DNA from: Gammaproteobacteria bacterium
GTDB lineage: Bacteria > Pseudomonadota > Gammaproteobacteria > UBA4575
NCBI GenBank assembly: GCA_045105615.1
Contig: JBGCDS010000027.1
Span: 3,036 to 67,035 of the forward strand
Length of the DNA stretch: 64,000 bases
Direction: 5' to 3'
Shown here: in pieces, positions 5,275 through 61,816 of the stretch
Position numbering within the stretch: position 1 is the stretch's first letter
Layout of the letters: every line of letters starts with the position of its first letter
Position numbers and translations under genes: made by a program
The notes under the pieces: model-generated
Databases searched by the model: none
The model's input: only the letters and a program-made list of their open reading frames with translations
What the model was told of the DNA's origin: nothing

Positions 5275-6177
5275 ATGGAAATTTATAATTTTCCATTTCG
5301 CGCGATGGGCAGTCCGTGCGAGTTTCAACTCTATACTTCAGATAAAGACACTGCTGAACTCGCGTGCAAAAAAGCGCATTCAGAAGTCACACGCCTAGAA
5401 AAAAAATATTCACGCTATCGTACCGATAGCGTGACCAACACCATCAACAAATCTTCTGGCAATTTAACAGGCATTAAAGTCGATAGTGAAACAGCGTTAC
5501 TTTTAGACTATGCGCAGGCTGTTTACAAACAGAGCGAAGGTTTATTCGATATTACTTCCGGCGTATTAAGACGCGCATGGAATTTCAAATCAAACCAATT
5601 ACCCACACAGAGCCAAATTGATGAAGCACTAGAATTAGTTGGCTGGCAACATGTCGAATGGCAACGCCCACATATTGTACTGAAGAAAAAAGGTATGGAA
5701 ATCGATTTTGGTGGTTACGTAAAAGAATATGCTGTAGATGCTGCAGCAAACACATTACGCAGTTATGGCATTAACGCCGGCCTAGTTGATTTGGGTGGTG
5801 ATATTAAAGTATTAGGCCCACACCCAGACAATAAGCCCTGGCAAATTGGTATCAGACATCCTAGAGACCCGGCTAACGCCATTGCCACCACCACGTTAGG
5901 ACAGGGAGCCATTGCGAGCAGCGGTGACTATGAACGTTTCATTACTATCGAAGGTAAGCGCTATGCGCATATCCTTAACCCAAAAACAGGCTGGCCAATT
6001 GAAGGATTTAGTGCTGTTAGCGTGATTGCTAGTGAATGCTTAATCGCTGGAAGCTGTTCAACTGTTGCCATGTTGAAAGGTGAGCAAGACGGAAAGTCCT
6101 GGCTTGATTCGTTAAAACTTCCTTATATTAGTGTTAATAAAGACATGCATGTAGAAGGCACTACCAACATCAGTTAA
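5275..6177 (+). CDS. apbE: FAD:protein FMN transferase (ApbE family), no signal peptide
   Basis: 300 aa ApbE-like sequence; in-frame stop 3 codons upstream excludes a leader peptide. Confidence 0.75.
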   Translation: MEIYNFPFRAMGSPCEFQLYTSDKDTAELACKKAHSEVTRLEKKYSRYRTDSVTNTINKSSGNLTGIKVDSETALLLDYAQAVYKQSEGLFDITSGVLRRAWNFKSNQLPTQSQIDEALELVGWQHVEWQRPHIVLKKKGMEIDFGGYVKEYAVDAAANTLRSYGINAGLVDLGGDIKVLGPHPDNKPWQIGIRHPRDPANAIATTTLGQGAIASSGDYERFITIEGKRYAHILNPKTGWPIEGFSAVSVIASECLIAGSCSTVAMLKGEQDGKSWLDSLKLPYISVNKDMHVEGTTNIS

Positions 6178-6596
6178 TTCAAATTCAGTAACACTCTCAC
6201 TTTTGGTGTAAGCAAATCTTCAAGCGTATAATCATCAAGCACAGACAAAAATTGATCCAACGCCCGCGTAAAAATAGTTGCCAATTTGCAACTCGGTGTT
6301 AGCACACATTGATTCTCAGTAGAGAAACATTCCACCAAATCGAAACTTTGTTCTGTCGCACGCACTACTTCACCTAAATTAATCGCTGCTGGTTCGCATA
6401 CCATCTCTAGGCCGCCACCCTTTCCACGAATCGACTGTATAAACCCTAACGTGGCTAACTGATTCACAACTTTGACCAGGTGATTTTTAGGTATCGCATA
6501 GCTCTGTGCAATTTCATCAATCGTACAACGACGATCGGCACTCGCCAGATAAATTAACGTTCTTAAAGCAAAATCGCTGTATTTAGTTAAGCGCAT
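6174..6596 (-). CDS. nsrR: Rrf2-family transcriptional repressor, NsrR/IscR-like with 3 Cys cluster
   Basis: MRLTKYSDFALRTLIYLA wHTH N-terminus; C-x6-C-x5-C (CFSTENQCVLTPSC); divergent from globin genes. Confidence 0.8.
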   Translation of the reverse strand: MRLTKYSDFALRTLIYLASADRRCTIDEIAQSYAIPKNHLVKVVNQLATLGFIQSIRGKGGGLEMVCEPAAINLGEVVRATEQSFDLVECFSTENQCVLTPSCKLATIFTRALDQFLSVLDDYTLEDLLTPKVRVLLNLN

Positions 6597-8110: not shown

Positions 8111-8464
8111 ATGTCTACTATTGCGCAAAGAATTCTACAGGCCCGAAAAGCCTGTGGATTATCACAGGAACTACTCGCCGAGAGGATGAAGGTTTCACGG
8201 GGCGCCTGTGGGCACTGGGAAAGAGGTAAAGCACTACCCAGTACTGACCATCTCACGCAACTTGCTAATATATTAAACGTACGCCTGGAATGGCTTGCGA
8301 CTGGCGAAGGTGATATCAACGCCTCCCATCAAATTTCAGAATCACCTGGTAATGAATATTCGATTTCAACCCAAGATGAAGAAACCAAAGAAGTCGCCGA
8401 ACTTTACTTTCGACTACCTAAAAGGAAACGGCAAATTATTTTAGACTTACTACGAGAACTATAA
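8111..8464 (+). CDS. XRE-family HTH transcriptional regulator
   Basis: ILQARKACGLSQELLAERMKVSRGACGHWERGKALPSTDHLTQLANIL helix-turn-helix. Confidence 0.8.
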   Translation: MSTIAQRILQARKACGLSQELLAERMKVSRGACGHWERGKALPSTDHLTQLANILNVRLEWLATGEGDINASHQISESPGNEYSISTQDEETKEVAELYFRLPKRKRQIILDLLREL

Positions 8465-8466
8465 GG

Positions 8467-8772
8467 TTAGTAATCAATATCCCCTAGCGGACGCTTGAAA
8501 GTATAACGTGCAGGTTCATTAATGAGATGCTCACGCACTTCTGGTTCGTTACCTCCCAACAAACTAAACGGCAGAGATACCGTATAAATTGCCGTGCCAG
8601 CTACCGTTGTTACTAATCCAATCGGACGCAACAAAACAGCATCTACGACTATCTTTTCACTTTTAGACAACAAACTCCCATGTGAATAACCATGATAGTG
8701 TCCCGCATAACTAACACTAGTAAACAGCACTAGGAACGCACAGATTAAAAAGTAACGTGTAAAATATTTCAT
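8467..8772 (-). CDS. hypothetical exported protein (His-rich GHYHGYSHG)
   Basis: start taken at MKYF; signal peptide; no recognised domain. Confidence 0.45.
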   Translation of the reverse strand: MKYFTRYFLICAFLVLFTSVSYAGHYHGYSHGSLLSKSEKIVVDAVLLRPIGLVTTVAGTAIYTVSLPFSLLGGNEPEVREHLINEPARYTFKRPLGDIDY

Positions 8773-8971
8773 ACAAACCTCAATCAATAGGGGTTATTTA
8801 GTGAGCATTATCGCATAAACCAAGCTAGAAAATGAGCCCCTTCAAACGGTTATTCACTCAGATAAATCAGTGATTCACAGGTTACCAACCTTCGAACTGA
8901 TGTGACTTATCATCAATCCTCTATAAATGTGTGATAATTCTTTTCTATAGCCACAGACCAAAGGATTCAAC

Positions 8972-9472
8972 ATGAAAACAAGACGACTAATAACGCTTAG
9001 CATATTATTTACTTTTTTAACCTTACTTATTACCGCATATGCAGACACTCCCAATGATGCTGATGCATTGGAAGGCATAGATACGGGTAAAGTAATATGG
9101 GATGTAACGTTAAGCAAGCCCAGTCGTCTACTATTTGTCATGAAAGTCATTGATGAAACTTATGAAGACCTAGTCCAGCAAGGCGTTAAACCAGATATGG
9201 TATTCACCTTTCATGGGCGCGTATTAAAGCTATTGTCCTCACAACCCATAGAACTAGATCTAGATGAAGAAGTTGCCCTAGAAGAGTTACTCGTGTTAAT
9301 TCAAACACTGAGCAACAAACCCGGCGTAAAGATGGAATCATGCTCAATCGCCTCGCGTATTCTAGGCATAGATAACAGCACGATTATTGCTGAGGTGAAA
9401 CCAGTGGGTAACACCTTTGTTTCAATGATTGGGTATCAGCAAAAAGGCTATGCGTTAATTCCAATTAATTAA
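8972..9472 (+). CDS. exported DsrE/DsrF-like (YchN-fold) candidate protein
   Basis: signal peptide; 166 aa; KVIWDVT...FVMKV..., conserved Cys in CSIASRILG; family assignment tentative. Confidence 0.4.
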   Translation: MKTRRLITLSILFTFLTLLITAYADTPNDADALEGIDTGKVIWDVTLSKPSRLLFVMKVIDETYEDLVQQGVKPDMVFTFHGRVLKLLSSQPIELDLDEEVALEELLVLIQTLSNKPGVKMESCSIASRILGIDNSTIIAEVKPVGNTFVSMIGYQQKGYALIPIN

Positions 9473-18523: not shown

Positions 18524-19948
18524 CTATGACTTGCCTGATGGATTAGTATATTGATCATTAAGTTTCTGAACAAAGCCATCAGCAGAATCACGTAGTTCGC
18601 TAATTTTATCCATCGCTTTTTGATCCCATCCAGCTAAGCGCCCAAATAATACACTCTTAAACCAACGCGTATTCTTTAGGAATGCTGCTCGCAAATTTCC
18701 ATAGTAACCATCCTCCGCTAAGCCGCGCGCATACCATTTAGCAATAGCGCCTCTAACAATAAAATGCACCAATACAAATACAGCGGCAATAGCAATTAAC
18801 AACACATTAGACATCACACCACCATAGCCATCTGCCGGCATACCTGGAATAGCAAAGCTAAATCCCTTCCAATAGCCATGAGAAATTGTGTACGACAAGA
18901 AAAAAATAAATAACGGAATTAGCACAATGACATCCGCAATCAGCACACGTTTTTTCCACACACTAACTGCTGTTTGCAACTCAGGAACTATTTCTTTTTC
19001 AATGCGATTTGAAAAATTCTCTAGTGCACCAATAATCCTATAAGCACGCTCAACACTTACCTGTGCAATACGTTTAGTAATTTCATGCAAATCAGCATCA
19101 CGCTTGCGTTTATATCTCTCTTCTAAGCCTGGGTCTTCAATTTTAACTGCCGCATCTTTATTATACAAAGTATGGAAGCTGCCGCTAACTAAGCCACCTT
19201 GAGCAATGGCGCGTTGCCATGCTGCGACTACATCCTCTAGATTATCTTCTGCTGCAGTGGTATCAATTTGATTCAAGATAAACATTATCTTATTGGCATC
19301 TTTGCGCCGTACTGTGCCAGCAACCAAGTGTTCCAAAGTATCTCTCATTGCGCCAGGCTCTGGATGTCTGGCATCAAAAAATACCAACACTAAATCAGAA
19401 AGATTAATAATATGATCTGTTATACGTAATGTTGAGTCCCTCTGAGAATCAGCATCAAATCCTGGTGAGTCAATCAAGATTTTGCCTCGCATAACATCAG
19501 TAGGACAGGTTTTTAATTGCAGATAAGTATCAATTCTTGAACCTTCACCTTCAGCTACTTTATCAATTGCTTCACTCATTTGATAAAATGGGAAACGCGG
19601 ATCCGCGTCCAACGCTATTCCGGGCAATACACGCACAGTGTCATCACTGCTAAAACAAAGCACAGTAAACTTATCATCGACGGCTTGGTTCCCCGTCTTC
19701 TGAATAGTGTCACCCACATACTGGTTTATAAAGCTCGACTTCCCTGCCGAGAATGTCCCCAAAATTGAGATCAGAGGCCACCATGAGATTTCTGTCGTGT
19801 ATGAGTCACGTGCATTCAACACACCTAAGCCCAAACCTACCTCATCTAGCTCAATAAATTTATCCACAACAGAGACCAACAGTGGACTCTCTTGCTCTAA
19901 ATGTTTTTGCAGGCTTTTTATCCGATCAGTTGTAATCTTATCTTGCAT
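18524..19948 (-). CDS. dynamin-family GTPase with two C-terminal transmembrane segments
   Basis: G1 GTFSAGKSSFIN, G3 IDSPGFD, G4-like NQID; hydrophobic stretches VLIADVIVLIPLFIFFL and VLLIAIAAVFVLVHFIV. Confidence 0.65.
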   Translation of the reverse strand: MQDKITTDRIKSLQKHLEQESPLLVSVVDKFIELDEVGLGLGVLNARDSYTTEISWWPLISILGTFSAGKSSFINQYVGDTIQKTGNQAVDDKFTVLCFSSDDTVRVLPGIALDADPRFPFYQMSEAIDKVAEGEGSRIDTYLQLKTCPTDVMRGKILIDSPGFDADSQRDSTLRITDHIINLSDLVLVFFDARHPEPGAMRDTLEHLVAGTVRRKDANKIMFILNQIDTTAAEDNLEDVVAAWQRAIAQGGLVSGSFHTLYNKDAAVKIEDPGLEERYKRKRDADLHEITKRIAQVSVERAYRIIGALENFSNRIEKEIVPELQTAVSVWKKRVLIADVIVLIPLFIFFLSYTISHGYWKGFSFAIPGMPADGYGGVMSNVLLIAIAAVFVLVHFIVRGAIAKWYARGLAEDGYYGNLRAAFLKNTRWFKSVLFGRLAGWDQKAMDKISELRDSADGFVQKLNDQYTNPSGKS

Positions 19949-47567: not shown

Positions 47568-47748
47568 CAAATATTATTTTACCTTATACACAGAACAACC
47601 TATAATGAACCCAGATGTTTATATCTATAAATAAACATCCCACAAATGGCGCGGCTCTTATATGTATACCCGCCTTTGTTTTTATATTCACATATCAACT
47701 TACAATTATTATCGGCGAAATTATTTTCTGCCCTTAAAGGACTATTTT

Positions 47749-48552
47749 ATGACGGAACAAAAACCCGAGCAAAAAACCGAACAAAAACCCGAAGATATCA
47801 GCATTAGTCAAACTGTGGCTATCCTCATTGACGGCAACAATATTGAAAGAAGTATTCACGATCAGACTAAAGACGCGAATACCATGCTCAACTTCGACAA
47901 ATTAATTCCCAAATTATTAGGTAACCGCGGACTAAATCGACTTATCTATTTCCGCGAAGGCAAGCAAATATCACAGAAGCTGAAAGATCGCCTTCACGAA
48001 TTTTTCCATGGCTCAGTTCGCCCTTGTCACAAATCTGCAGACATCCCTCTATCAATTAATGCCATGCAGTTAGCAAGCAAAGTTGACACTATCGTCATCA
48101 TGTCTGGTGATTCTGACTACATCGAGCTTGTAAGACATTTAAAATCTGAAGGTGTACGCGTAGAAATTGCGTCAGTTGATGCAACCACTGCACATATCAT
48201 CAAGGAAGAATGCGATCACCATTATCGTATTAATGAAGCAGATTGGTTCACCTATGCACCAAAGCAGGCAAACCAAAACAACAAACAAAATAAACGTCGC
48301 TCTAACAAAAAAACACAAAACAATCAGAACGACAAGCAAGCAGCGACAGAAACAGATACCAATGATGACAACAAAAACAGCAAACCAAAAAATACTGTTA
48401 AAAAAGCTGCTAGCAACAAAAGCAAGGGCAGCAAAGAAGAACGCCAACCCACTTCCAACGAGTCAGACATCATAGCCACAGTTAAAGAGAAGTCTTCACG
48501 CAAATATGAGCCCGAATATCCTCAGAGCCAATATATTGAACCCACTTCGTAA
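47749..48552 (+). CDS. NYN/LabA-like domain protein with N-terminal EQKPE repeats and K/N/Q-rich low-complexity tail
   Basis: AILIDGNNIERS...MSGDSDYIELVRHLKSEGVRVEIASV NYN core; ORF-track start 47662 judged extension. Confidence 0.65.
   Translation: MTEQKPEQKTEQKPEDISISQTVAILIDGNNIERSIHDQTKDANTMLNFDKLIPKLLGNRGLNRLIYFREGKQISQKLKDRLHEFFHGSVRPCHKSADIPLSINAMQLASKVDTIVIMSGDSDYIELVRHLKSEGVRVEIASVDATTAHIIKEECDHHYRINEADWFTYAPKQANQNNKQNKRRSNKKTQNNQNDKQAATETDTNDDNKNSKPKNTVKKAASNKSKGSKEERQPTSNESDIIATVKEKSSRKYEPEYPQSQYIEPTS
47755..47790 (+). repeat. 3 x 12-bp tandem repeat (gaacaaaaaccc) within N-terminus of NYN gene
   Basis: seen directly; encodes EQKPEQKTEQKP. Confidence 0.7.
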
Positions 48553-50337: not shown

Positions 50338-51087
50338 ATGACAAATAACATAGACATCAGCAACAAAGTTGCCCTTATAACTGGAGCGAATCGTGGCATT
50401 GGAAAAGTAATTGCAGAGTCATTCCTCGATAACGGCGCTAAAAAAGTTTACGCTGCTGTGAGAGATACTGATTCAGCAAACGAGTTAATTGAAAAATATG
50501 GTGACCGCGTATCAACTATCAAAATTGACCTTGCTAATCCTCAATCGATTACTGATGCAGCCAAAATTGCTACTGATGCTGAAATAATCGTTAATAATGC
50601 AGGCGTGCTCACTTCGACAACACCACTAGATAGTAGTGCTGTAGAAAATCTCAGCTTTGAAATGGACATAAACGTTGGCGGACTAATAAGAATGGCTCAA
50701 GCTTTTTCACCAGTATTAAAACAAAATGGTGGTGGCGCATTAATTCAACTTAATTCAATTGCATCGATAAAAAACTTCGTGCCATTTACTACCTATTCTG
50801 CATCTAAAGCAGCAGCCTATTCAGTCACTCAATCATTAAAAGACCTATTGGGCGAACAGGGCACTTTTGTCATGAGCGTTCACCCTGGGCCTATTGCGAC
50901 CGATATGGGCGACGCTGCTGGATTAACTGATATTGCAGAACCAGCATCATTAGTGTCTGATGCCATTATAGAAGGCTTAAAACAAGGCGCTTTCCATGTA
51001 TTCCCGGACACAATGGCTAAACAAGTAGAAAGTGCATACCACTACTACGCAGAAAATGTGGTGGAAGCGAATTTAATGGAAGGATAA
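50338..51087 (+). CDS. short-chain dehydrogenase/reductase (SDR)
   Basis: TGANRGIGK motif; YSASKAA. Confidence 0.8.
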   Translation: MTNNIDISNKVALITGANRGIGKVIAESFLDNGAKKVYAAVRDTDSANELIEKYGDRVSTIKIDLANPQSITDAAKIATDAEIIVNNAGVLTSTTPLDSSAVENLSFEMDINVGGLIRMAQAFSPVLKQNGGGALIQLNSIASIKNFVPFTTYSASKAAAYSVTQSLKDLLGEQGTFVMSVHPGPIATDMGDAAGLTDIAEPASLVSDAIIEGLKQGAFHVFPDTMAKQVESAYHYYAENVVEANLMEG

Positions 51088-51104
51088 ACAGCCCTATACA
51101 CTAA

Positions 51105-51141
51105 AGAGTAGTTATTTTTGTACAAACTTAATAACTGCTCT
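51105..51141. terminator. hairpin (12-bp stem, 1 mismatch) between convergent SDR and merT-like genes
   Basis: agagtagttatt-N13-aataactgctct. Confidence 0.45.
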
Positions 51142-51159
51142 AAGTGTTTCCACAAAAAA

Positions 51160-51540
51160 CTAAAACAACTCAGCTGCAAGGAAGGCAAAGAAAAATCCAA
51201 CTAGGTAAACAAGAATTGAAAAAATCAATACCATCCAATTGAACCTCCTCAGTCTTGCACATGCTTTAGCCTGCTTCACCTCTGCTGGGCATGCTTGATT
51301 TCTCGCTCGCCACTGAACAACGGCTGACATCAACAAAAGCAATCCTGCCGCTAAGAATACAATTTCTTTATATTCCGAGATTGTAATCAACCAAGGCGCA
51401 GCTGACACCAGACCAGCAAGCGCTGCTCCCATTCCCACAGTGACAAACAAGGCAGGAAGCGCACAGCAAACTAATGTGCTCACGCTGCCAAACAAACTTA
51501 ACGTAGGTAGTAGCACTTGTTTATACGCGTTATCCACCAC
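51160..51540 (-). CDS. MerT-like heavy-metal transport inner-membrane protein
   Basis: 3 TM; vicinal CC in TM1 (LVCCALPA); second Cys pair ACPAEVKQAKAC; aligns with Tn501 MerT topology. Confidence 0.7.
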   Translation of the reverse strand: MVDNAYKQVLLPTLSLFGSVSTLVCCALPALFVTVGMGAALAGLVSAAPWLITISEYKEIVFLAAGLLLLMSAVVQWRARNQACPAEVKQAKACARLRRFNWMVLIFSILVYLVGFFFAFLAAELF

Positions 51541-51832
51541 GGCGAATCTCCTCTATATTATACCCAGCATCAACAATATTTTTATGAATAACAGCATCAT
51601 TTAATTGCTGTCCTTTCTTCAAGTGAATAGTGACAATTTTCTCATCGAGATTCACATCGATACCATCCACCGCAACTTCTTTACCAAACACTTTCTCCAA
51701 TGCTTGAGCACAAAAATCACACACAAGCCCATAGATACTAACTTCTATCGTACCTTCTGAATGTTGAGAAAAAGCATTATTTGAAAACAAGCCGACAAAC
51801 AAAGCTAACATCATTATTAATTTTTTCATCAT
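51530..51832 (-). CDS. MerP-like periplasmic heavy-metal-associated (HMA) domain protein
   Basis: signal peptide; GLVCDFCA metal-binding loop. Confidence 0.7.
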   Translation of the reverse strand: MMKKLIMMLALFVGLFSNNAFSQHSEGTIEVSIYGLVCDFCAQALEKVFGKEVAVDGIDVNLDEKIVTIHLKKGQQLNDAVIHKNIVDAGYNIEEIRRGG

Positions 51833-51845
51833 TATTCCTTATTAA

Positions 51846-52484
51846 TTAAAAGCGAACCGCCCAATTGAGCAGAACATCTCTATTACTACTAATTCCCGCC
51901 TCAAATCTGTGAACATCCTTTAAAAGACGTACCAATGGCGTTAGCGTAATATTATTTTCACTCTCAGGTATATGCTCCACCTCAACCATTAACCAAGCAT
52001 GCAAAGCACCATAGTCTGCAATGTAAGGCGCCATACCGACTCGCACCCTTTGCATAAAAAAATCATCCAGGCTTCCTGCCTCCAAGTAACGATTTTCATA
52101 GGATATAAAATACTCTCGCGATTCCCAATCACCAGAAATACCGGAAAATATAGCTATTTTAGAATCATTCTCTAAACGACTAGAGTTACGATCGGCATAT
52201 CCAATGCCAGACTTAAGATAAAGATTCATTTGCGAATCTTTTTTATTCCACCGCTTAACGAGATTATTAAGCTGAAAACCCGTCAACAAATACTCTCCGG
52301 CACGACGATATTCTGATCTGATCCCAAGCGAGTATTTTGCCGAGGGCGAATAATGCAACAACACTGAATGCTCATCACCATTGTTACTTATATCAGCGGT
52401 AACACCACCAGGATATGAAACAGGGCGAGCCAATGAACACTGTGCAGAAAGACTAAGCACAATAAGTACTAATAACATTCTCAT
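51846..52484 (-). CDS. hypothetical outer-membrane beta-barrel-like protein
   Basis: signal peptide; alternating amphipathic strands; C-terminal ...LNWAVRF. Confidence 0.5.
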   Translation of the reverse strand: MRMLLVLIVLSLSAQCSLARPVSYPGGVTADISNNGDEHSVLLHYSPSAKYSLGIRSEYRRAGEYLLTGFQLNNLVKRWNKKDSQMNLYLKSGIGYADRNSSRLENDSKIAIFSGISGDWESREYFISYENRYLEAGSLDDFFMQRVRVGMAPYIADYGALHAWLMVEVEHIPESENNITLTPLVRLLKDVHRFEAGISSNRDVLLNWAVRF

Positions 52485-52561
52485 TATTTTTCTCCTGAAA
52501 AATATTTTTATTCATCGCCTTATTTAACGGCGATGCAAACTGAGCTAATTACGCTCAAATA

Positions 52562-52909
52562 TCAGGAGATATAGATAGGAGGACGATATAGAGAAGAGAA
52601 ATATTTTGAATTAGCATATTCATCAATGACGATAAAACGCTGTTGATGCATATTAAGCACATTTAAATTACCTAATTCAAAGAATGGTGTTTGACCGGTT
52701 GAATATATGAAACAAAAACATGCATCTTTACAATGCTCATCATTCTCATTCTGCTGCTCGTCATGACATGGCATATCTGACTCAGCAAGCACTTCAGATT
52801 GAAGATCATTGATTTCTATCTGTTGCATGCACAGCATCAGCTCTGCCGACGCGATGAGCGTATTAGCAATAAATACCAAGCTAACAATATATAAAACAAT
52901 GTTTTTCAT
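52562..52909 (-). CDS. hypothetical exported Cys/His-rich protein
   Basis: signal peptide; PCHDEQQNENDEHCKDACFCF cluster. Confidence 0.4.
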   Translation of the reverse strand: MKNIVLYIVSLVFIANTLIASAELMLCMQQIEINDLQSEVLAESDMPCHDEQQNENDEHCKDACFCFIYSTGQTPFFELGNLNVLNMHQQRFIVIDEYANSKYFSSLYRPPIYIS

Positions 52910-53002
52910 TTCGATGATTTTAAGCTACTTCCAAATAAAGTACTGCTGCAGCACAACCTTAACGGCTATAAACATATGATCAACACAACCATCATAAGTT
53001 CA

Positions 53003-53278
53003 TTAAACAGACTGACGCGCTTTTATTGCCAGTGCTACCAATGCCTCCCGAACCTGCTTAGGGGTTTCACACTTCCTGGCAAAATCAATTCTAAGTCTTT
53101 CGCCGTTAGCTAACATCTCAAATCCCACACTATCAATCCTAAGCATTTTTGGATCCTCATTAAGTGTAGTCACTCCATTCAACTGACAATAGTCACGCAT
53201 GGCATCAACATGGTCTTCATTAATATGAGCAATCATATGTTGCTCAGTTTCTTCATCGAATTTAGTCATAAAACCCAT
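53003..53278 (-). CDS. DUF2470-like small protein
   Basis: HINEDHVDAMRDYC motif; ~90 aa from MGFMTKF start. Confidence 0.45.
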   Translation of the reverse strand: MGFMTKFDEETEQHMIAHINEDHVDAMRDYCQLNGVTTLNEDPKMLRIDSVGFEMLANGERLRIDFARKCETPKQVREALVALAIKARQSV

Positions 53279-53403
53279 ACTTAATTGTGTCGAAAAATAT
53301 CGCTTCACCATACCTAGTATTTTATAAATTATCAGCAATATCAGTTGCGAATATTGTTTATTTAAGTTACTAAACTAACTGGAATCATTTGTGGAGCAGT
53401 TAA

Positions 53404-53718
53404 ATGATATTAACCAATATCGAAGAGGTCCCTGGCAAGAGAATTCTTGAGCATTATGGCTTAGTACAAGGCAATACCATACGCGCCAAACATGTAGGCA
53501 AGGATATCTTAGCTAGCATTAAAAATATCTTTGGGGGTGAATTAGCCGCGTACACTGAACTCCTTTCAGAGTCACGCAAAGAAGCAACCGATCGCATGAT
53601 CCAACAGGCTGAAGCAATGGGAGCCAATGCGATAATCAATATACGTTATAGCACTTCTTCAGTAGCACAGGGCGCTGCCGAACTTTACGCTTACGGCACA
53701 GCGGTACGAGTCGAATAA
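53404..53718 (+). CDS. ybjQ: YbjQ/UPF0145-family protein (putative heavy-metal-binding domain)
   Basis: 104 aa; ..GGELAAYTELLSESRKEATDRMIQQAEAMGANAIINIRY.. typical YbjQ. Confidence 0.75.
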   Translation: MILTNIEEVPGKRILEHYGLVQGNTIRAKHVGKDILASIKNIFGGELAAYTELLSESRKEATDRMIQQAEAMGANAIINIRYSTSSVAQGAAELYAYGTAVRVE

Positions 53719-54200
53719 TGCTAGACATTATTATTCTCATTTCCCTATTGGGACTTGGCTATTACTTTGGCCAGCGCGCTGAAAAAAAACATTATAAATC
53801 GATCATTGAGCGTGAAAACCAGCTGATTAATTTACCACTAATTACTTTAAAAACACCTCCACCGATAAAACAGTATGAAGTTAATGCTGCACTAGTCACT
53901 GGCAGTGTTGTAATTTCTATCGACTTTTTTAAAAAGTTTATAGCCTCATTGAAAATGCTATTTGGAGGCCGGCTAACAACATATGAATCCTTATTAGACC
54001 GTGCACGTAGAGAAGCTTTATTACGCTTAAGAGAACAGGCCAAAATACGCAAAGCATTTGTTGTTCTAAACACACGCATTGAAACCGCTTCTATTAGCAA
54101 AAGCAGCGGACGTCGAGAAGGTAGCGTAGGTTCAATCGAAGTAGTCGCTTATGGCACTGCTATAAGCATGACGAATCGGCGCCGAAACATCGCCTCATGA
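53718..54200 (+). CDS. membrane-anchored YbjQ-family paralogue
   Basis: N-terminal TM (IIILISLLGLGYYF) then YbjQ-like core (FGGRLTTYESLLDRARREA...); start overlaps upstream stop. Confidence 0.6.
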   Translation: MLDIIILISLLGLGYYFGQRAEKKHYKSIIERENQLINLPLITLKTPPPIKQYEVNAALVTGSVVISIDFFKKFIASLKMLFGGRLTTYESLLDRARREALLRLREQAKIRKAFVVLNTRIETASISKSSGRREGSVGSIEVVAYGTAISMTNRRRNIAS

Positions 54201-55042
54201 AATACGTCCCGTCTCAGCCACCAGAAGGAATAAACGTTTCCAAGGAACACCCGTTAAAGTCATTCTTTATTCTCTCAACCGGCACGGTCGCTTCTATATT
54301 TATTATCTTATTCGTTATTAGTTTATTTGCAGATTTTATTGTTAGCTTCATCCCTGTTGAATACGAGCGTGCGTTATTTGAAAACAGAAATATTGGCGAC
54401 TTAATCACAGACAGTAAAACCGAAACGTCAGATGAAATTCAGCAGTATCTACAAACACTAGTCGATTCACTTCATGAACAGGGTGGAGATAAATATAACG
54501 ATCATCAGTTCAAAGTCAGCCTAAGCCCAATGCCTCAACCCAATGCTTTTGCAGCACCGGGCGGCCACATTGTTGTCACCTATGGATTACTCAGAAGTGT
54601 TAATTCAGAAAATGGTTTAGCCATGGTACTTGCCCATGAAATTGGCCACCATTATGAAAGACACCCACTTAGAGGACTAGGAAGAGGTTTAGTCATGGCT
54701 TTCTTCTTATCGGCAATATCAGGATTTGAGATTGGAGGTTATGCAGATAAGTTTGTAGAAAGAACCGCCTTCATTGGACAGCTCGCCTATAGCCGAAAAC
54801 AAGAAACTGACTCAGACAATATTGCGATAGATTTGTTACAAAAAAAGTATGGCCATGCTTATGGTGCCAGTGAATTTTTCAGATACATAAAAAATTCCAG
54901 CGAAAACAATAGCGAACCACCGATATTCTTAAGCACGCACCCTTCCACACAAGAACGCTTAAGCTATTTAAAGAAAATGGAACGAAAAAATTATGGCGAC
55001 AAAAAAAATATCCCTAAAAACATTCTAGAAAAATTGCCATAG
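54197..55042 (+). CDS. M48-family zinc metallopeptidase with N-terminal TM segment
   Basis: HEIGHHYERH HExxH; overlapping start with upstream gene. Confidence 0.75.
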   Translation: MKYVPSQPPEGINVSKEHPLKSFFILSTGTVASIFIILFVISLFADFIVSFIPVEYERALFENRNIGDLITDSKTETSDEIQQYLQTLVDSLHEQGGDKYNDHQFKVSLSPMPQPNAFAAPGGHIVVTYGLLRSVNSENGLAMVLAHEIGHHYERHPLRGLGRGLVMAFFLSAISGFEIGGYADKFVERTAFIGQLAYSRKQETDSDNIAIDLLQKKYGHAYGASEFFRYIKNSSENNSEPPIFLSTHPSTQERLSYLKKMERKNYGDKKNIPKNILEKLP

Positions 55043-59453: not shown

Positions 59454-59936
59454 ATGCCTACTTTTGTATATATGACTCGTTGCGATGGTTGTGGACATTG
59501 CGTTGATATCTGCCCTTCAGACATCATGCATATCGACACTACTACCCGACGTGCTTACAACATTGAGCCAAACATGTGCTGGGAGTGTTACTCCTGCGTT
59601 AAGGCTTGCCCACATAATGCTATCGACGTTCGTGGTTATGCTGACTTTGCTCCACTAGGTCACTCAGTACGAGTAATTCGCGATGAAGAGAAAGGTGTTA
59701 TTGCCTGGCGTATTAAATTCCGCAACGGCAAGAAAGACATGAATCTGTTAGCTCCGATTACAACTAAACCTTGGGGTACAGCTATTCCGAATCTATCGGA
59801 TGAATCTGCTCCTAGTAAGGATATGACTGATAGCCAGCTACTTTTCAATGAGCCGAAATACATCCGTTTGGATGAAGGTGGTTTACATACGCTTGAGTCT
59901 AACGGCTTGAAGATGAAAGAAGGAGTTTACTACTAA
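59454..59936 (+). CDS. aprB: adenylylsulfate (APS) reductase beta subunit
   Basis: two [4Fe-4S] motifs CDGCGHCVDICP / CWECYSCVKACP; 160 aa; followed by aprA. Confidence 0.85.
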   Translation: MPTFVYMTRCDGCGHCVDICPSDIMHIDTTTRRAYNIEPNMCWECYSCVKACPHNAIDVRGYADFAPLGHSVRVIRDEEKGVIAWRIKFRNGKKDMNLLAPITTKPWGTAIPNLSDESAPSKDMTDSQLLFNEPKYIRLDEGGLHTLESNGLKMKEGVYY

Positions 59937-61816
59937 TGGGTTATAAAACTGTTGTAGAAGATGACATTGATGTACTGATCACTGGTGCTGGCATGGCCGG
60001 TACCGGTGCTGCATTCGAGTCTAGATATTGGGGCAAGGACAAGAAAATTGTCATTGCTGAGAAAGCAAACATGGATCGCTCAGGTGCAGTTGCACAGGGT
60101 CTATATGCTATCAACACATATATGGGAACTCGTTTCGGTGAAAACAATCCTGAAGATCACGTACGTTACGCGCGTATGGATTTGATGGGTATGGTACGTG
60201 AAGATTTGCTATTTGATATGGCTCGCCATGTTGATTCAGCAGTGCACCAATTCGAAGAATGGGGTTTGCCATTAATGCGTGATCCTAAGACCGGTGCTTA
60301 TCAGCGCGAAGGTCGTTGGCAGATCATGATTCACGGTGAGTCATACAAGCCTATCGTGGCTGAAGCTGCTAAAAAATCAGCAGACAAAGTATTCAACCGT
60401 ATCTGTGTTACTCATTTGTTAATGGATGATGCAAAAGAAAATCGTGTTGCTGGTGCTGTTGGCTTCAACGTACGTACGGGTGATTATCACGTATTCAAAT
60501 CTAAAGCTGTTGTTTGTGCTGCCGGTGGCGCGTCAAATATCTTCAAGCCTCGTTCAGTGGGTGAAGGTGCAGGTCGTGTTTGGTATGCACCATGGTCATC
60601 AGGTTCAGCTTACGGCTTGCTAATTGAAGCAGGCGCGAAAATGACACAGATGGAAAACCGTATTGTGTTAGCGCGCTTCAAAGACGGCTACGGTCCAGTA
60701 GGTGCTTACTTCTTACACCTTAAGACTTACACACAGAATGGTGTCGGCGAAGAGTATGAGTCAAAGTGGTTCCCTGAATTATCGAAAATGGTTGGTAAAG
60801 AATACCTCGATACAGAAGGTCAGCATTTATCTCATAAACCAATTCCAACTTGCTTACGTAACCATGCATTCATCAACGAAGTAAATGCAGGTCGCGGACC
60901 GATTCACATGGTTACCATGGAAGCGTTCCAAGATCCTCATCTTGAAGAAATTGGTTGGCATAACTTCTTAGGTATGACAGTTGGTCAAGCCGTCCTTTGG
61001 GCAGCAACTGACGTCGATCCTAAATATGAGAACCCTGAACTAACAACTTCAGAGCCATATGTAATGGGTTCACATGCCACCGGTTGTGGTGCATGGGTCT
61101 CAGGTCCAGAAGATATCGCACCAGATGAGTACTTCTGGGGTTACAACCGTATGACAACAGTTGAAGGTCTATTCGGCGCAGGTGATGCTGCTGGTGGTAC
61201 ACCACACGCATTCTCTTCTGGCTCATTCACAGAAGGTCGTTTAGCTGCTAAGGCTGCATGCAAATACATCGATGATGGAAAAGCAGAAGGCATTAGAGTT
61301 TCTCAAGAGCAAATTGATAGACGCGGTGAGCAAATCTTCAAGCCGATGGAACATTATAAAATCTATCGCAATGAGATTACTGCGGGTTCAGTCAATCCTA
61401 ATTACATCAACCCACGTCAGGGTCTTGATCGCTTGCAAAAGCTAATGGACGAGTACGCTGGTGGTGTAACTGTTAGCTATATGACCAACGACAAGCTACT
61501 TAACATCGGTCTCAAGAAGATGAAGATGCTTGAGGAAGACTTAGAGAAGATTGCTGCTGAAGATATCCATGAGTTACTTCGCGCATGGGAATTAAAGCAT
61601 CGTCAACTCTCTTCTGAAGCTGTGTTACAACACACTTTATTCCGCAAGGAAACTCGTTGGCCTGGTTACTACTACCGTGGTGACGCGATGAAACTAGATG
61701 ACCAAAATTGGCATGTATTAACTGTTTCACGTCGTGATCCTAAAACTGGTGAGTACACCATGGAAAAAGCTCCTTGCTATCACTTAGTTAGTGATGCAGA
61801 GGAAAAAGTTGCGTAA
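59936..61816 (+). CDS. aprA: adenylylsulfate (APS) reductase alpha subunit (FAD)
   Basis: 626 aa; LITGAGMAGTGAA FAD motif; fumarate-reductase-like fold; start overlaps aprB stop. Confidence 0.9.
   Translation: MGYKTVVEDDIDVLITGAGMAGTGAAFESRYWGKDKKIVIAEKANMDRSGAVAQGLYAINTYMGTRFGENNPEDHVRYARMDLMGMVREDLLFDMARHVDSAVHQFEEWGLPLMRDPKTGAYQREGRWQIMIHGESYKPIVAEAAKKSADKVFNRICVTHLLMDDAKENRVAGAVGFNVRTGDYHVFKSKAVVCAAGGASNIFKPRSVGEGAGRVWYAPWSSGSAYGLLIEAGAKMTQMENRIVLARFKDGYGPVGAYFLHLKTYTQNGVGEEYESKWFPELSKMVGKEYLDTEGQHLSHKPIPTCLRNHAFINEVNAGRGPIHMVTMEAFQDPHLEEIGWHNFLGMTVGQAVLWAATDVDPKYENPELTTSEPYVMGSHATGCGAWVSGPEDIAPDEYFWGYNRMTTVEGLFGAGDAAGGTPHAFSSGSFTEGRLAAKAACKYIDDGKAEGIRVSQEQIDRRGEQIFKPMEHYKIYRNEITAGSVNPNYINPRQGLDRLQKLMDEYAGGVTVSYMTNDKLLNIGLKKMKMLEEDLEKIAAEDIHELLRAWELKHRQLSSEAVLQHTLFRKETRWPGYYYRGDAMKLDDQNWHVLTVSRRDPKTGEYTMEKAPCYHLVSDAEEKVA

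Follow-up and report, generated by a model that had tools for sequence, protein, structure and literature searches.

At positions 51160 to 52909 of a 64-kb stretch of contig JBGCDS010000027.1 (assembly GCA_045105615.1), from a gammaproteobacterial metagenome-assembled genome (MAG) of the UBA4575 lineage, four tightly packed open reading frames (ORFs), here termed A, B, C, and D, were found on the minus strand (Table 1). The whole 64,000-nucleotide stretch is referred to below as the window. B and C are separated by 13 nt, and C overlaps D by 11 nt, with AGGAG preceding the GTG start of D. A terminator-like hairpin lies on the upstream side, behind a DUF2470 gene, and a convergent SDR gene lies downstream. 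An earlier, sequence-only reading had described four genes with characteristic motifs in this region, and all of them were found where it had placed them. The sequence of D is identical to that of "hypothetical protein AB8B89_08245."

Table 1. Coordinates of the cassette, its motifs and RNA elements in the window, and of the MerR-B fusions in related loci (L numbers)
Feature	Coordinates	Strand	Remarks
Gene A, 115 aa	52909..52562	minus	ORF list; signal-peptide-like N terminus
Gene B, 212 aa	52484..51846	minus	ORF list
Gene C, 100 aa	51832..51530	minus	ORF list
Gene D, 126 aa, GTG start	51540..51160	minus	ORF list
MPCH, second motif of A	52763-52774	minus	
CxxxCxC codons of A (C60-K-D-A-C64-F-C66), putative metal-binding motif of the nascent protein	52712..52732	minus	Conserved
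R109-P110-P111 codons of A, putative ribosome-arrest motif	52577..52585	minus	Peptide-level conservation
Anti-Shine-Dalgarno arm UCUCCUGA, last codons and stop of A	52562..52569	minus	Pairs with the Shine-Dalgarno arm of B
Two inner hairpins in the A-B spacer (52542-52556 and 52513-52535)	52513..52556	minus	Enclosed by the anti-Shine-Dalgarno:Shine-Dalgarno helix
Shine-Dalgarno arm UCAGGAGA of B, 7 nt upstream of ATG	52491..52498	minus	Pairs with the anti-Shine-Dalgarno arm
GLVCDFCA codons of C	51707-51730	minus	
Codons of vicinal C25-C26 of D, inside CCALPA	within 51451-51468	minus	
Terminator-like hairpin and T-run, 3' of the upstream DUF2470 gene	52940..52954	minus	5' boundary of the cassette
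MerR-B fusion ORFs	L058:4069-5124, L067:3090-4181, L068:6630-7700		No intervening stop
MerR-type promoters	~L058:4015-4046, L067:3090-3121, L068:6590-6622		

A scan of one genome per species recovered relatives of D in at least 432 species-level genomes from many phyla, among them Alpha-, Beta-, and Gammaproteobacteria, Bdellovibrionota, Thermodesulfobacteriota, Dadabacteria, Margulisbacteria, and Spirochaetia. With few exceptions, these are MAGs from aquatic samples. Homologues number about 1,900 for D and about 280 for B, and none of them carries a Pfam domain or a name. Of 84 related loci, 83 contain D, 81 contain C, and 78 contain B; every untruncated locus has the order B-C-D, and an A-like ORF lies immediately upstream of B in approximately 58. 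The same four genes occur in Micavibrio in a wholly different neighborhood, with flanks unrelated to those of the Gammaproteobacteria, and clustering of the other flanking ORFs of the 84 loci revealed no recurrent partner besides A to D. The region is a self-contained four-gene cassette, in which B-C-D, previously read as a module from one sequence, stays together across widely differing genomic surroundings. The DUF2470 gene upstream and the SDR/LysR pair downstream were considered as parts of the system and rejected, being kept only in the closest relative (the DUF2470 neighbor in close relatives only).

An exhaustive HMMER search yielded 78 representatives of the A family, which share a background identity of 19 to 21% and a small set of strongly conserved residues. 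C64 and P111 are invariant, and C27, C48, H49, C60, C66, and P110 are conserved in at least 90% of members. In A itself these positions correspond to C27, M-P-C48-H49, C60-x3-C64-x-C66, and R109-P110-P111, the last lying four codons ahead of the stop; the Cys/His cluster noticed earlier in this protein is present as MPCH...HCKDACFCF. The distance from C64 to P110 is 45 residues in A and ranges from 38 to 46 in the family. An R usually stands before the Pro pair and a K after it, and the stop usually comes four codons on. Because all four Pro codons are used for this pair across the family, the constraint acts on the peptide. Conservation of the pair merely as an RNA sequence opposing the Shine-Dalgarno (SD) element was ruled out on the same ground and by the 29 of 54 pairs that lack CUCC. 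The N terminus is hydrophobic and, as judged by eye, carries an A-x-A-like site in nearly all members; a lipoprotein was ruled out, since no lipobox precedes C27.

The sole recurrent family match of the A relatives was to CopL_fam (NCBIfam NF033807), and the matches are always weak, with 18 of 38 and 34 of 78 members matching in two sets (best E values, 6.3e-10 and 1.4e-9, respectively). A itself scored 18.3 bits (E = 0.0028) against a curated cut-off of 40, in a nearly full-length alignment (residues 9-112 of 115 with 7-128 of 129). Pfam DUF2946 (PF11162) matched 1 of 38 members at E = 0.017 and none of 78 at E ≤ 0.01. On this sequence comparison, A is classed as a distant relative of CopL, not as a curated member. 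It shares the hallmark of CutF- and CruR-type leaders, a Cys motif and a Pro arrest motif near the stop about 45 residues apart. The sequence-only reading had taken A for a metal-handling component and had recognized no described homologues. Described relatives do exist in the CopL family, and these matches, the invariance of the Cys and Pro residues, and the RNA helix described below point instead to regulation. Most likely, A acts in cis as a regulatory leader ORF and is a divergent sensor of the CopL/CutF/CruR type; a role in handling metal is very improbable.

The end of A and the start of B are predicted to pair in a long-range RNA helix, in which an anti-SD arm formed by the last codons and stop of A meets the SD arm of B and encloses two inner hairpins, the second of which is followed by an A/U-rich tract. 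The minimum-free-energy (MFE) fold of this segment has a z score of -4.36. Of 50 related loci, whose spacers are unrelated in sequence, 48 show the long-range helix in their MFE folds, and inner hairpins, likewise of unrelated sequence, are present in most related loci. Among 48 A genes, 34 carry an anti-SD motif within their final 12 nt, compared with 12 of 400 other ORFs (p ~ 1e-29). The median duplex energy of cognate A tails and B leaders is -11.6 kcal/mol, compared with -4.6 for unrelated ORF tails, and cognate tails pair more strongly than do A tails from other loci (means, -10.9 versus -8.4 kcal/mol; p = 6e-8). These position-specific duplex-energy and motif controls superseded a first shuffle control, which took the longest helix anywhere in 155 nt with G-U pairs allowed and was uninformative (control mean, ~7 bp).

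The stop codon and its partner also covary: UGA occurs with UCA or UCG in 17 of 19 cases, and UAA occurs with UUA or UUG in 13 of 13 (Fisher 3e-7). In a MAFFT alignment that was not fitted to structure, 77.8% of cells pair in register, versus 45 to 55% when one arm is slid by one to three columns. The alignment includes a switch from G-C (10 sequences) to A-U (6 sequences), and its covariation score was reached by 4 of 500 shuffles. The anti-SD arm begins a median of 6 nt past the last Pro codon and ends about 15 nt past it, and arrest site, anti-SD, and SD together lie within ~90 nt. With this geometry, a ribosome paused on the Pro pair would sit over the anti-SD arm and melt the helix. An Rfam scan of positions 50900-53500 found no known RNA family.

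B is confidently predicted to be a 12-stranded outer-membrane β-barrel of an unannotated family, with a signal peptide and a C-terminal aromatic residue, in agreement with the outer-membrane barrel predicted from the sequence. The mean column identity of the family is 60%. Besides an invariant PVSYP at the mature N terminus, its members keep polar, His, Trp, and Met residues without exception at further sites, among them H162-x-W164-x-M166 and H171. No relative of B was found in Pfam or NCBIfam (E ≤ 1) or among PDB sequences, and PDB sequence searches with profiles of B and D returned nothing meaningful.

C is an exported HMA-domain protein with a signal-peptide-like N terminus and the loop GLVCDFCA, whose G-x-V-C-x-F-C-A pattern is at least 90% conserved in 80 homologues. 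Its match to the Pfam HMA model (PF00403) is a borderline pass, at 24.9 bits with a cut-off of 24.8, and agrees with the HMA assignment made from the sequence. The equivalog models give scores well under their cut-offs: 24.6 versus 92.55 bits for MerP (TIGR02052), 29.6 versus 91 for CopZ_Bs (NF033795), and 29.5 versus 112 for CopP. We class C as a putative periplasmic HMA CxxC protein, to which a metal specificity is not assignable.

D, a three-helix protein of the inner membrane, has a vicinal pair, C25-C26, in helix 1 and a second pair, C84 and C94, within CP...AC. All four Cys residues are invariant in 33 homologues, and the mean column identity of the family is 70%. Because the loop with C84 and C94 is the sole strongly basic loop of D, holding 7 of the protein's 9 Lys and Arg residues while the other loops hold none or one, it is placed on the cytoplasmic side. 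An AlphaFold2 (AF2) model of D contains helices at residues 5-47, 58-80, and 88-125. The sequence-only reading had called D MerT-like on account of the CC in the first transmembrane helix (TM1) and the cytoplasmic Cys pair; both features stand, but the MerT model (PF02411) gave no match to the D of the window even at E ≤ 10. The same model weakly matches 20 of 32 members of the D family (best E = 3.5e-5), and a profile of genuine MerT sequences, taken from annotated mer operons, aligned with the profile of the D family in hhalign at 77% probability (E = 2e-5) with the CC pairs in register. Against NCBIfam MerTP_fusion, D scored 14.8 bits, with a cut-off of 180. These comparisons place D as a remote relative of MerT with a MerT-like architecture and not as a member of the MerT family.

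When genuine Mer proteins from a Klebsiella plasmid served as phmmer queries, neither the window, translated in six frames, nor the 84 loci yielded a MerA, a MerC, or a bona fide MerT, and no MerR was found in the translated window. The absence of merR and merA noted from the sequence is borne out, as is the unusual gene order, P then T, which the constant B-C-D order extends to every untruncated locus. Faint "MerA" matches at the loci represent the HMA domain of C aligned with the N-terminal domain of MerA.

At some loci without A, a different type of regulator accompanies the cassette. In three such loci (L058, L067, and L068), all alphaproteobacterial or Rickettsiales MAGs, B is preceded by a heavy-metal MerR-family sensor domain that runs in frame into its signal peptide and barrel. 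The fused domain scores 105 to 116 bits about equally against ZntR, CueR, and MerR and 81 to 102 bits against CadR, all below the equivalog cut-offs, and it contains a Cys at the equivalent of "position 79" and a C-terminal Cys pair. The promoter of the fusions is of the classical MerR type and consists of TTGACC, a 20-bp spacer filled by a palindrome (CCTTGGAGTA/TACTCCAAGG or ACCCTT..AAGGGT), and a -10-like hexamer. To our knowledge, a cytoplasmic transcription factor in one polypeptide with the precursor of an outer-membrane protein is very unusual. An A-less Sphingomonadaceae locus carries a divergent CsoR/RicR-type repressor just upstream of B (L037:6582-6857, minus), which scored 86.7 bits against NCBIfam RicR, below the cut-off. 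Another A-less locus has what by eye look like a gene for an ECF sigma factor and one for an anti-sigma membrane protein upstream of B (L074:6318-6908 and 5789-6331, minus), possibly another candidate replacement regulator. Beside the fusion in L068, a Cys-rich protein with a weak Csp1-family match (34 bits) is encoded upstream of MerR-B-C-D (6136-6501, minus) and a CDF-family cation exporter (79.6 bits, just below the cut-off) downstream (8409-9041).

MerR-type activators and CsoR-type repressors both switch genes on under metal excess. Because such sensors replace A at some A-less loci, induction of the cassette by metal excess is suggested, and we favor it as roughly twice as likely as the opposite sign. 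Import, as proposed in the sequence-only reading, is not established; the excess-responsive regulators that replace A suggest a stress-induced system. The expectation that the module handles a thiophilic metal other than, or besides, Hg fares better, given the CopL-like sensor and the ZntR/CueR-like MerR-type or CsoR-type regulators. Cu(I) is the favored metal because of the CopL-like and CsoR-like links, and Zn, Cd, and Hg are also possible because of the three-Cys ZntR-like sensors and the CDF neighbor.

We propose, with a probability of about 0.6, that A is a metal-sensing leader for B-C-D and that these three proteins form a soft-metal envelope relay, most likely induced by excess. The proposal builds on what the loci display, namely, gene content and order, conservation, the barrel fold, the Cys and Pro motifs, and the covarying helix with its geometry. 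By default, the SD of B (UCAGGAGA) would be occluded by the end of A (UCUCCUGA) and B would not be translated. Metal on the Cys motif of nascent, partly exported A would set the dwell time of the ribosome at R-P-P. A ribosome paused at the Pro pair would cover the anti-SD arm and free the SD, permitting translation of B, and C and D would be translated after B by means of their close spacing or overlap. C could then serve as a periplasmic metallochaperone that captures a soft metal and swaps it with the vicinal thiols of D, which would relay it by ligand exchange to or from the cytoplasmic Cys pair, while B would be the channel for passage across the outer membrane. The net flux might be inward, in a mer-like manner and toward cytoplasmic buffering, or outward.

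Several points weigh against this proposal. Ribosome arrest, metal dependence, metal binding, the identity of the metal, transport and its direction, and the direction of regulation are all steps that we infer. The match of A to CopL_fam stays under the curated cut-off, and Pfam DUF2946 misses the family. The homology of D to MerT is remote, the hhalign alignment covering TM1-TM2 only; the confidence of the D model is moderate (predicted local distance difference test [pLDDT] score, 68); and mer transport has no outer-membrane channel that would be a counterpart to B. The core of the RNA helix is partly dictated by the SD sequence, so much of the pairing is invariant, and plain translational coupling without metal sensing would use such a helix too. 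RNAalifold returned no consensus for 23 segments running from the tail of A into the beginning of B, the spacer being unalignable, and was replaced by the explicit pair counting on the unfitted MAFFT alignment. The replacement regulators were found at 4 of ~19 A-less loci and differ in their metals (three-Cys ZntR-like versus CsoR-like). The sign of regulation is unreadable from A alone, since Cu has opposite effects on stalling in the two known leaders, prolonging it in CutF and relieving it in CruR.

A more ambitious version of the proposal is possible, if doubtful. B-C-D might constitute a new trans-envelope soft-metal relay, in which metal would pass by ligand exchange, with no need of ATP or an RND pump, along a dedicated 12-stranded channel in the outer membrane, a chaperone of the HMA type, and a MerT-like Cys carrier. 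It might be induced translationally by a new branch of arrest-peptide sensors that use their own stop region as anti-SD, with the MerR-B polypeptide governing instead in some Rickettsiales-like lineages. If control by MerR-B is true, it would involve a transcription factor that is membrane tethered or released by signal peptidase.

Beyond the cassette, some neighboring genes recur within single lineages. Directly 3' of D in Micavibrio (L002:7404-8150 and likewise L003), a 248-aa protein with a glutaredoxin-family domain and a MauE (PF07291) membrane domain is encoded, followed by a 54-aa ORF (L002:8169-8333); the Grx-MauE gene hints at a thiol-redox accessory restricted to the Micavibrio lineage. 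Nine Dadabacteria and Thermodesulfobacteriota loci (e.g., L029, L031, L073, and L082) share membrane and cytochrome c genes 3' of D that look respiratory-complex-like by eye, and a heme A synthase-like gene, recognized from its sequence alone, lies close to the cassette in five alphaproteobacterial loci. The respiratory and heme A synthase-like neighbors appear to reflect lineage-specific synteny.

An explanation with the opposite sign would make the cassette a copper acquisition system with CruR-like logic, in which scarcity stalls the ribosome on A, B-C-D import Cu for cuproenzymes, and metal, by relieving the stall, turns the system off. MerT and MerP import in the mer paradigm, an outer-membrane channel suits uptake, and the hosts are mostly oligotrophic marine and freshwater lineages for which trace metals are scarce. 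CruR, from the wider class to which A belongs, heads a Cu-regulated metal-import operon, in which Cu relieves stalling and the importer is repressed (PMC9426467). The few loci near heme A synthase-like or respiratory-like genes would also fit, were these neighbors not lineage-specific synteny and known from a reading of the sequence only. What makes copper acquisition unlikely in our view is that A-less loci carry excess-responsive regulators, of MerR type with a MerR-type promoter and of CsoR type, and that the short spacer with its SD-shielding helix fits the induced design of CutF and CopL, not the long-spacer, Rho-dependent design of CruR. It is quite improbable that A is instead a true secreted Cys/His metal-binding protein, a chaperone or buffer, and that the helix is ordinary translational coupling. 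A signal-peptide-like N terminus and five to six conserved Cys/His positions would suit such a protein, and occlusion of an SD by the end of the upstream ORF is a common coupling device. Outside its Cys, His, and Pro-Pro residues, however, A is almost unconstrained (19 to 21% identity, versus 60 to 71% for B, C, and D), and an invariant Pro pair that keeps a fixed distance both to the Cys motif and to the anti-SD arm would serve no evident purpose in a mature binding protein. Some lineages also dispense with A and have transcription factors in its place, and the characterized relatives CutF and CruR, which work in cis, either escape detection or are broken down once exported (PMC9973294, PMC9426467).

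Two further explanations concern what D and C do. A thiol-disulfide redox relay could be built from the two invariant Cys pairs of D, one on each side of the membrane, with the CxxC of C as their partner. In it, D would pass reducing equivalents from the cytoplasm to this CxxC by CcdA/DsbD-like logic, and the glutaredoxin-domain/MauE protein encoded after D in Micavibrio would be in keeping with this. We judge it very unlikely, since C has an HMA ferredoxin-like domain and not a thioredoxin fold, the sole detectable relatives of D are MerT proteins, all of the associated regulators are metal sensors, and the Grx-MauE neighbor is limited to one lineage. Hardly credible is a split mer system, with a classical MerT/MerP Hg-uptake arm here and merA and merR elsewhere in the genome. 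The CC in TM1, the cytoplasmic Cys pair, the periplasmic HMA partner, and weak matches to the MerT, MerP, and MerTP models are what such an arm would show. Yet MerA turned up neither in the window nor at any of the 84 loci, which come from many phyla, the scores for these models are far below their cut-offs, the P-then-T order and the outer-membrane barrel are unlike reference mer operons, and the sensor in most loci is CopL-like and not MerR.

According to a Pfam scan, the large ORFs elsewhere in the window have housekeeping functions only. Just past the DUF2470 gene, three co-directional genes (53404-55042, plus strand) are not conserved beside the cassette in other loci. The first of them (104 aa) is, we presume, YbjQ/UPF0145-like, a family often labelled "heavy-metal-binding"; the second (160 aa) is related to the first and has an N-terminal hydrophobic segment, and the third (281 aa) has a HEIGHH zinc-protease motif. 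A protein encoded at 47662-48552 (plus) has a long low-complexity C-terminal tail rich in Lys, Asn, and Gln, and its counterpart in the syntenic locus L001 bears an NYN domain. A bacterial dynamin-family GTPase is encoded at 18524-19948 (minus), and a flavoprotein with FAD_binding_2 and Succ_DH_flav_C domains at 59454-61816 (plus), beside a small ORF. Because the neighboring ferredoxin-like gene in L001 has an APS-reductase_C match, the last region is suggested to be an AprBA-type sulfur-metabolism locus.

The principle of sensing by A is already known from CutF, CruR, and CopL. As far as we searched the literature and the family libraries, the A family, the use of a stop region as anti-SD, the trio of barrel, HMA, and MerT-like proteins, and the MerR-barrel fusions are undescribed, and a literature search for "MerT-like" plus "copper" found nothing. 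Two published neighborhood surveys do not mention the B-C-D operon type, because they used Pfam DUF2946, which is blind to the A family. Four families without a curated name or Pfam assignment, save the borderline HMA match of C, are here brought together in one cassette that is present in at least several hundred species, mostly of uncultured marine and freshwater lineages. If our proposal is true, the nascent-peptide metal sensing by ribosome arrest known from CutF and CruR gains a new family and a new downstream system, with an unusually clean and directly testable switch design. MerT/MerP-like thiol relays would then also operate outside mercury resistance, coupled to a dedicated outer-membrane channel, which bears on how abundant aquatic bacteria handle copper and other soft metals.

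Among known systems, CutF and CopL, which are Cu-sensing leaders exported during their translation, resemble A most fully. In CutF of Rhodobacter capsulatus (cutFOG), a Sec signal peptide precedes a CxxxC motif, which is followed 45 residues on by a proline-rich C terminus, and a stem-loop hides the SD of the next gene until Cu-prolonged stalling melts it (PMC9973294; bioRxiv 10.1101/2025.02.05.636593). CopL of the Xanthomonas and Stenotrophomonas copLAB operon has been proposed to be isofunctional with CutF (PMC9973294; bioRxiv 10.1101/2025.02.05.636593). A likewise heads its operon and has a signal-peptide-like N terminus, a CxxxC motif, a Pro motif about 45 residues later near the C terminus, a short spacer with RNA structure over the SD of the next gene, and, probably, action in cis. 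It differs in that its Pro motif is R-P-P-K and not PPP, in that its last codons and stop form the 5' arm of the helix in place of a purely intergenic stem-loop, and in the genes that follow, which encode an outer-membrane barrel, an HMA protein, and a MerT-like protein and not a multicopper oxidase. According to the CutF paper, CutF-like proteins are not all Cu specific (PMC9973294).

CruR of Bordetella pertussis (bp2923; DUF2946) has a CXXC motif and, 45 residues away, an R-A-P-P arrest motif 3 residues before the stop (PMC9426467). CXXC is the functional motif of CruR, as CxxxC is that of CutF (PMC9426467 and PMC9973294, respectively). A shares with CruR the position as an upstream ORF, a conserved Cys motif, a C-terminal RPP near the stop, and the 45-residue spacing. 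CruR is followed by a 162-nt spacer with Rho-dependent termination (PMC9426467), whereas the spacer of A is short (~40-100 nt) and contains a helix that occludes the SD directly; A has no match to the DUF2946 hidden Markov model.

With mer transport the cassette shares D, a three-helix protein whose first helix bears a vicinal Cys pair and whose cytoplasmic Cys pair lies between helices 2 and 3, and its partner C, an exported HMA CxxC protein like MerP. The loop pair of D is C-x9-C in place of the C-x5-C of MerT. Reference mer operons have the order merR-merT-merP-(merC)-merA and no outer-membrane barrel, whereas here the C-then-D order is reversed, merR and merA are absent, and C and D are accompanied by an outer-membrane barrel and a leader ORF. 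Compared with the Pco/Cop systems, B has no sequence relation to CopB/PcoB (PF05275), and PcoB is not its best structural match; C has an HMA fold and not the CopC fold, D is MerT-like and not CopD, and there is no multicopper oxidase. The layout of the cassette nevertheless parallels that of Pco/Cop, with an outer-membrane barrel, a periplasmic chaperone, and an inner-membrane carrier, headed in Xanthomonas by CopL.

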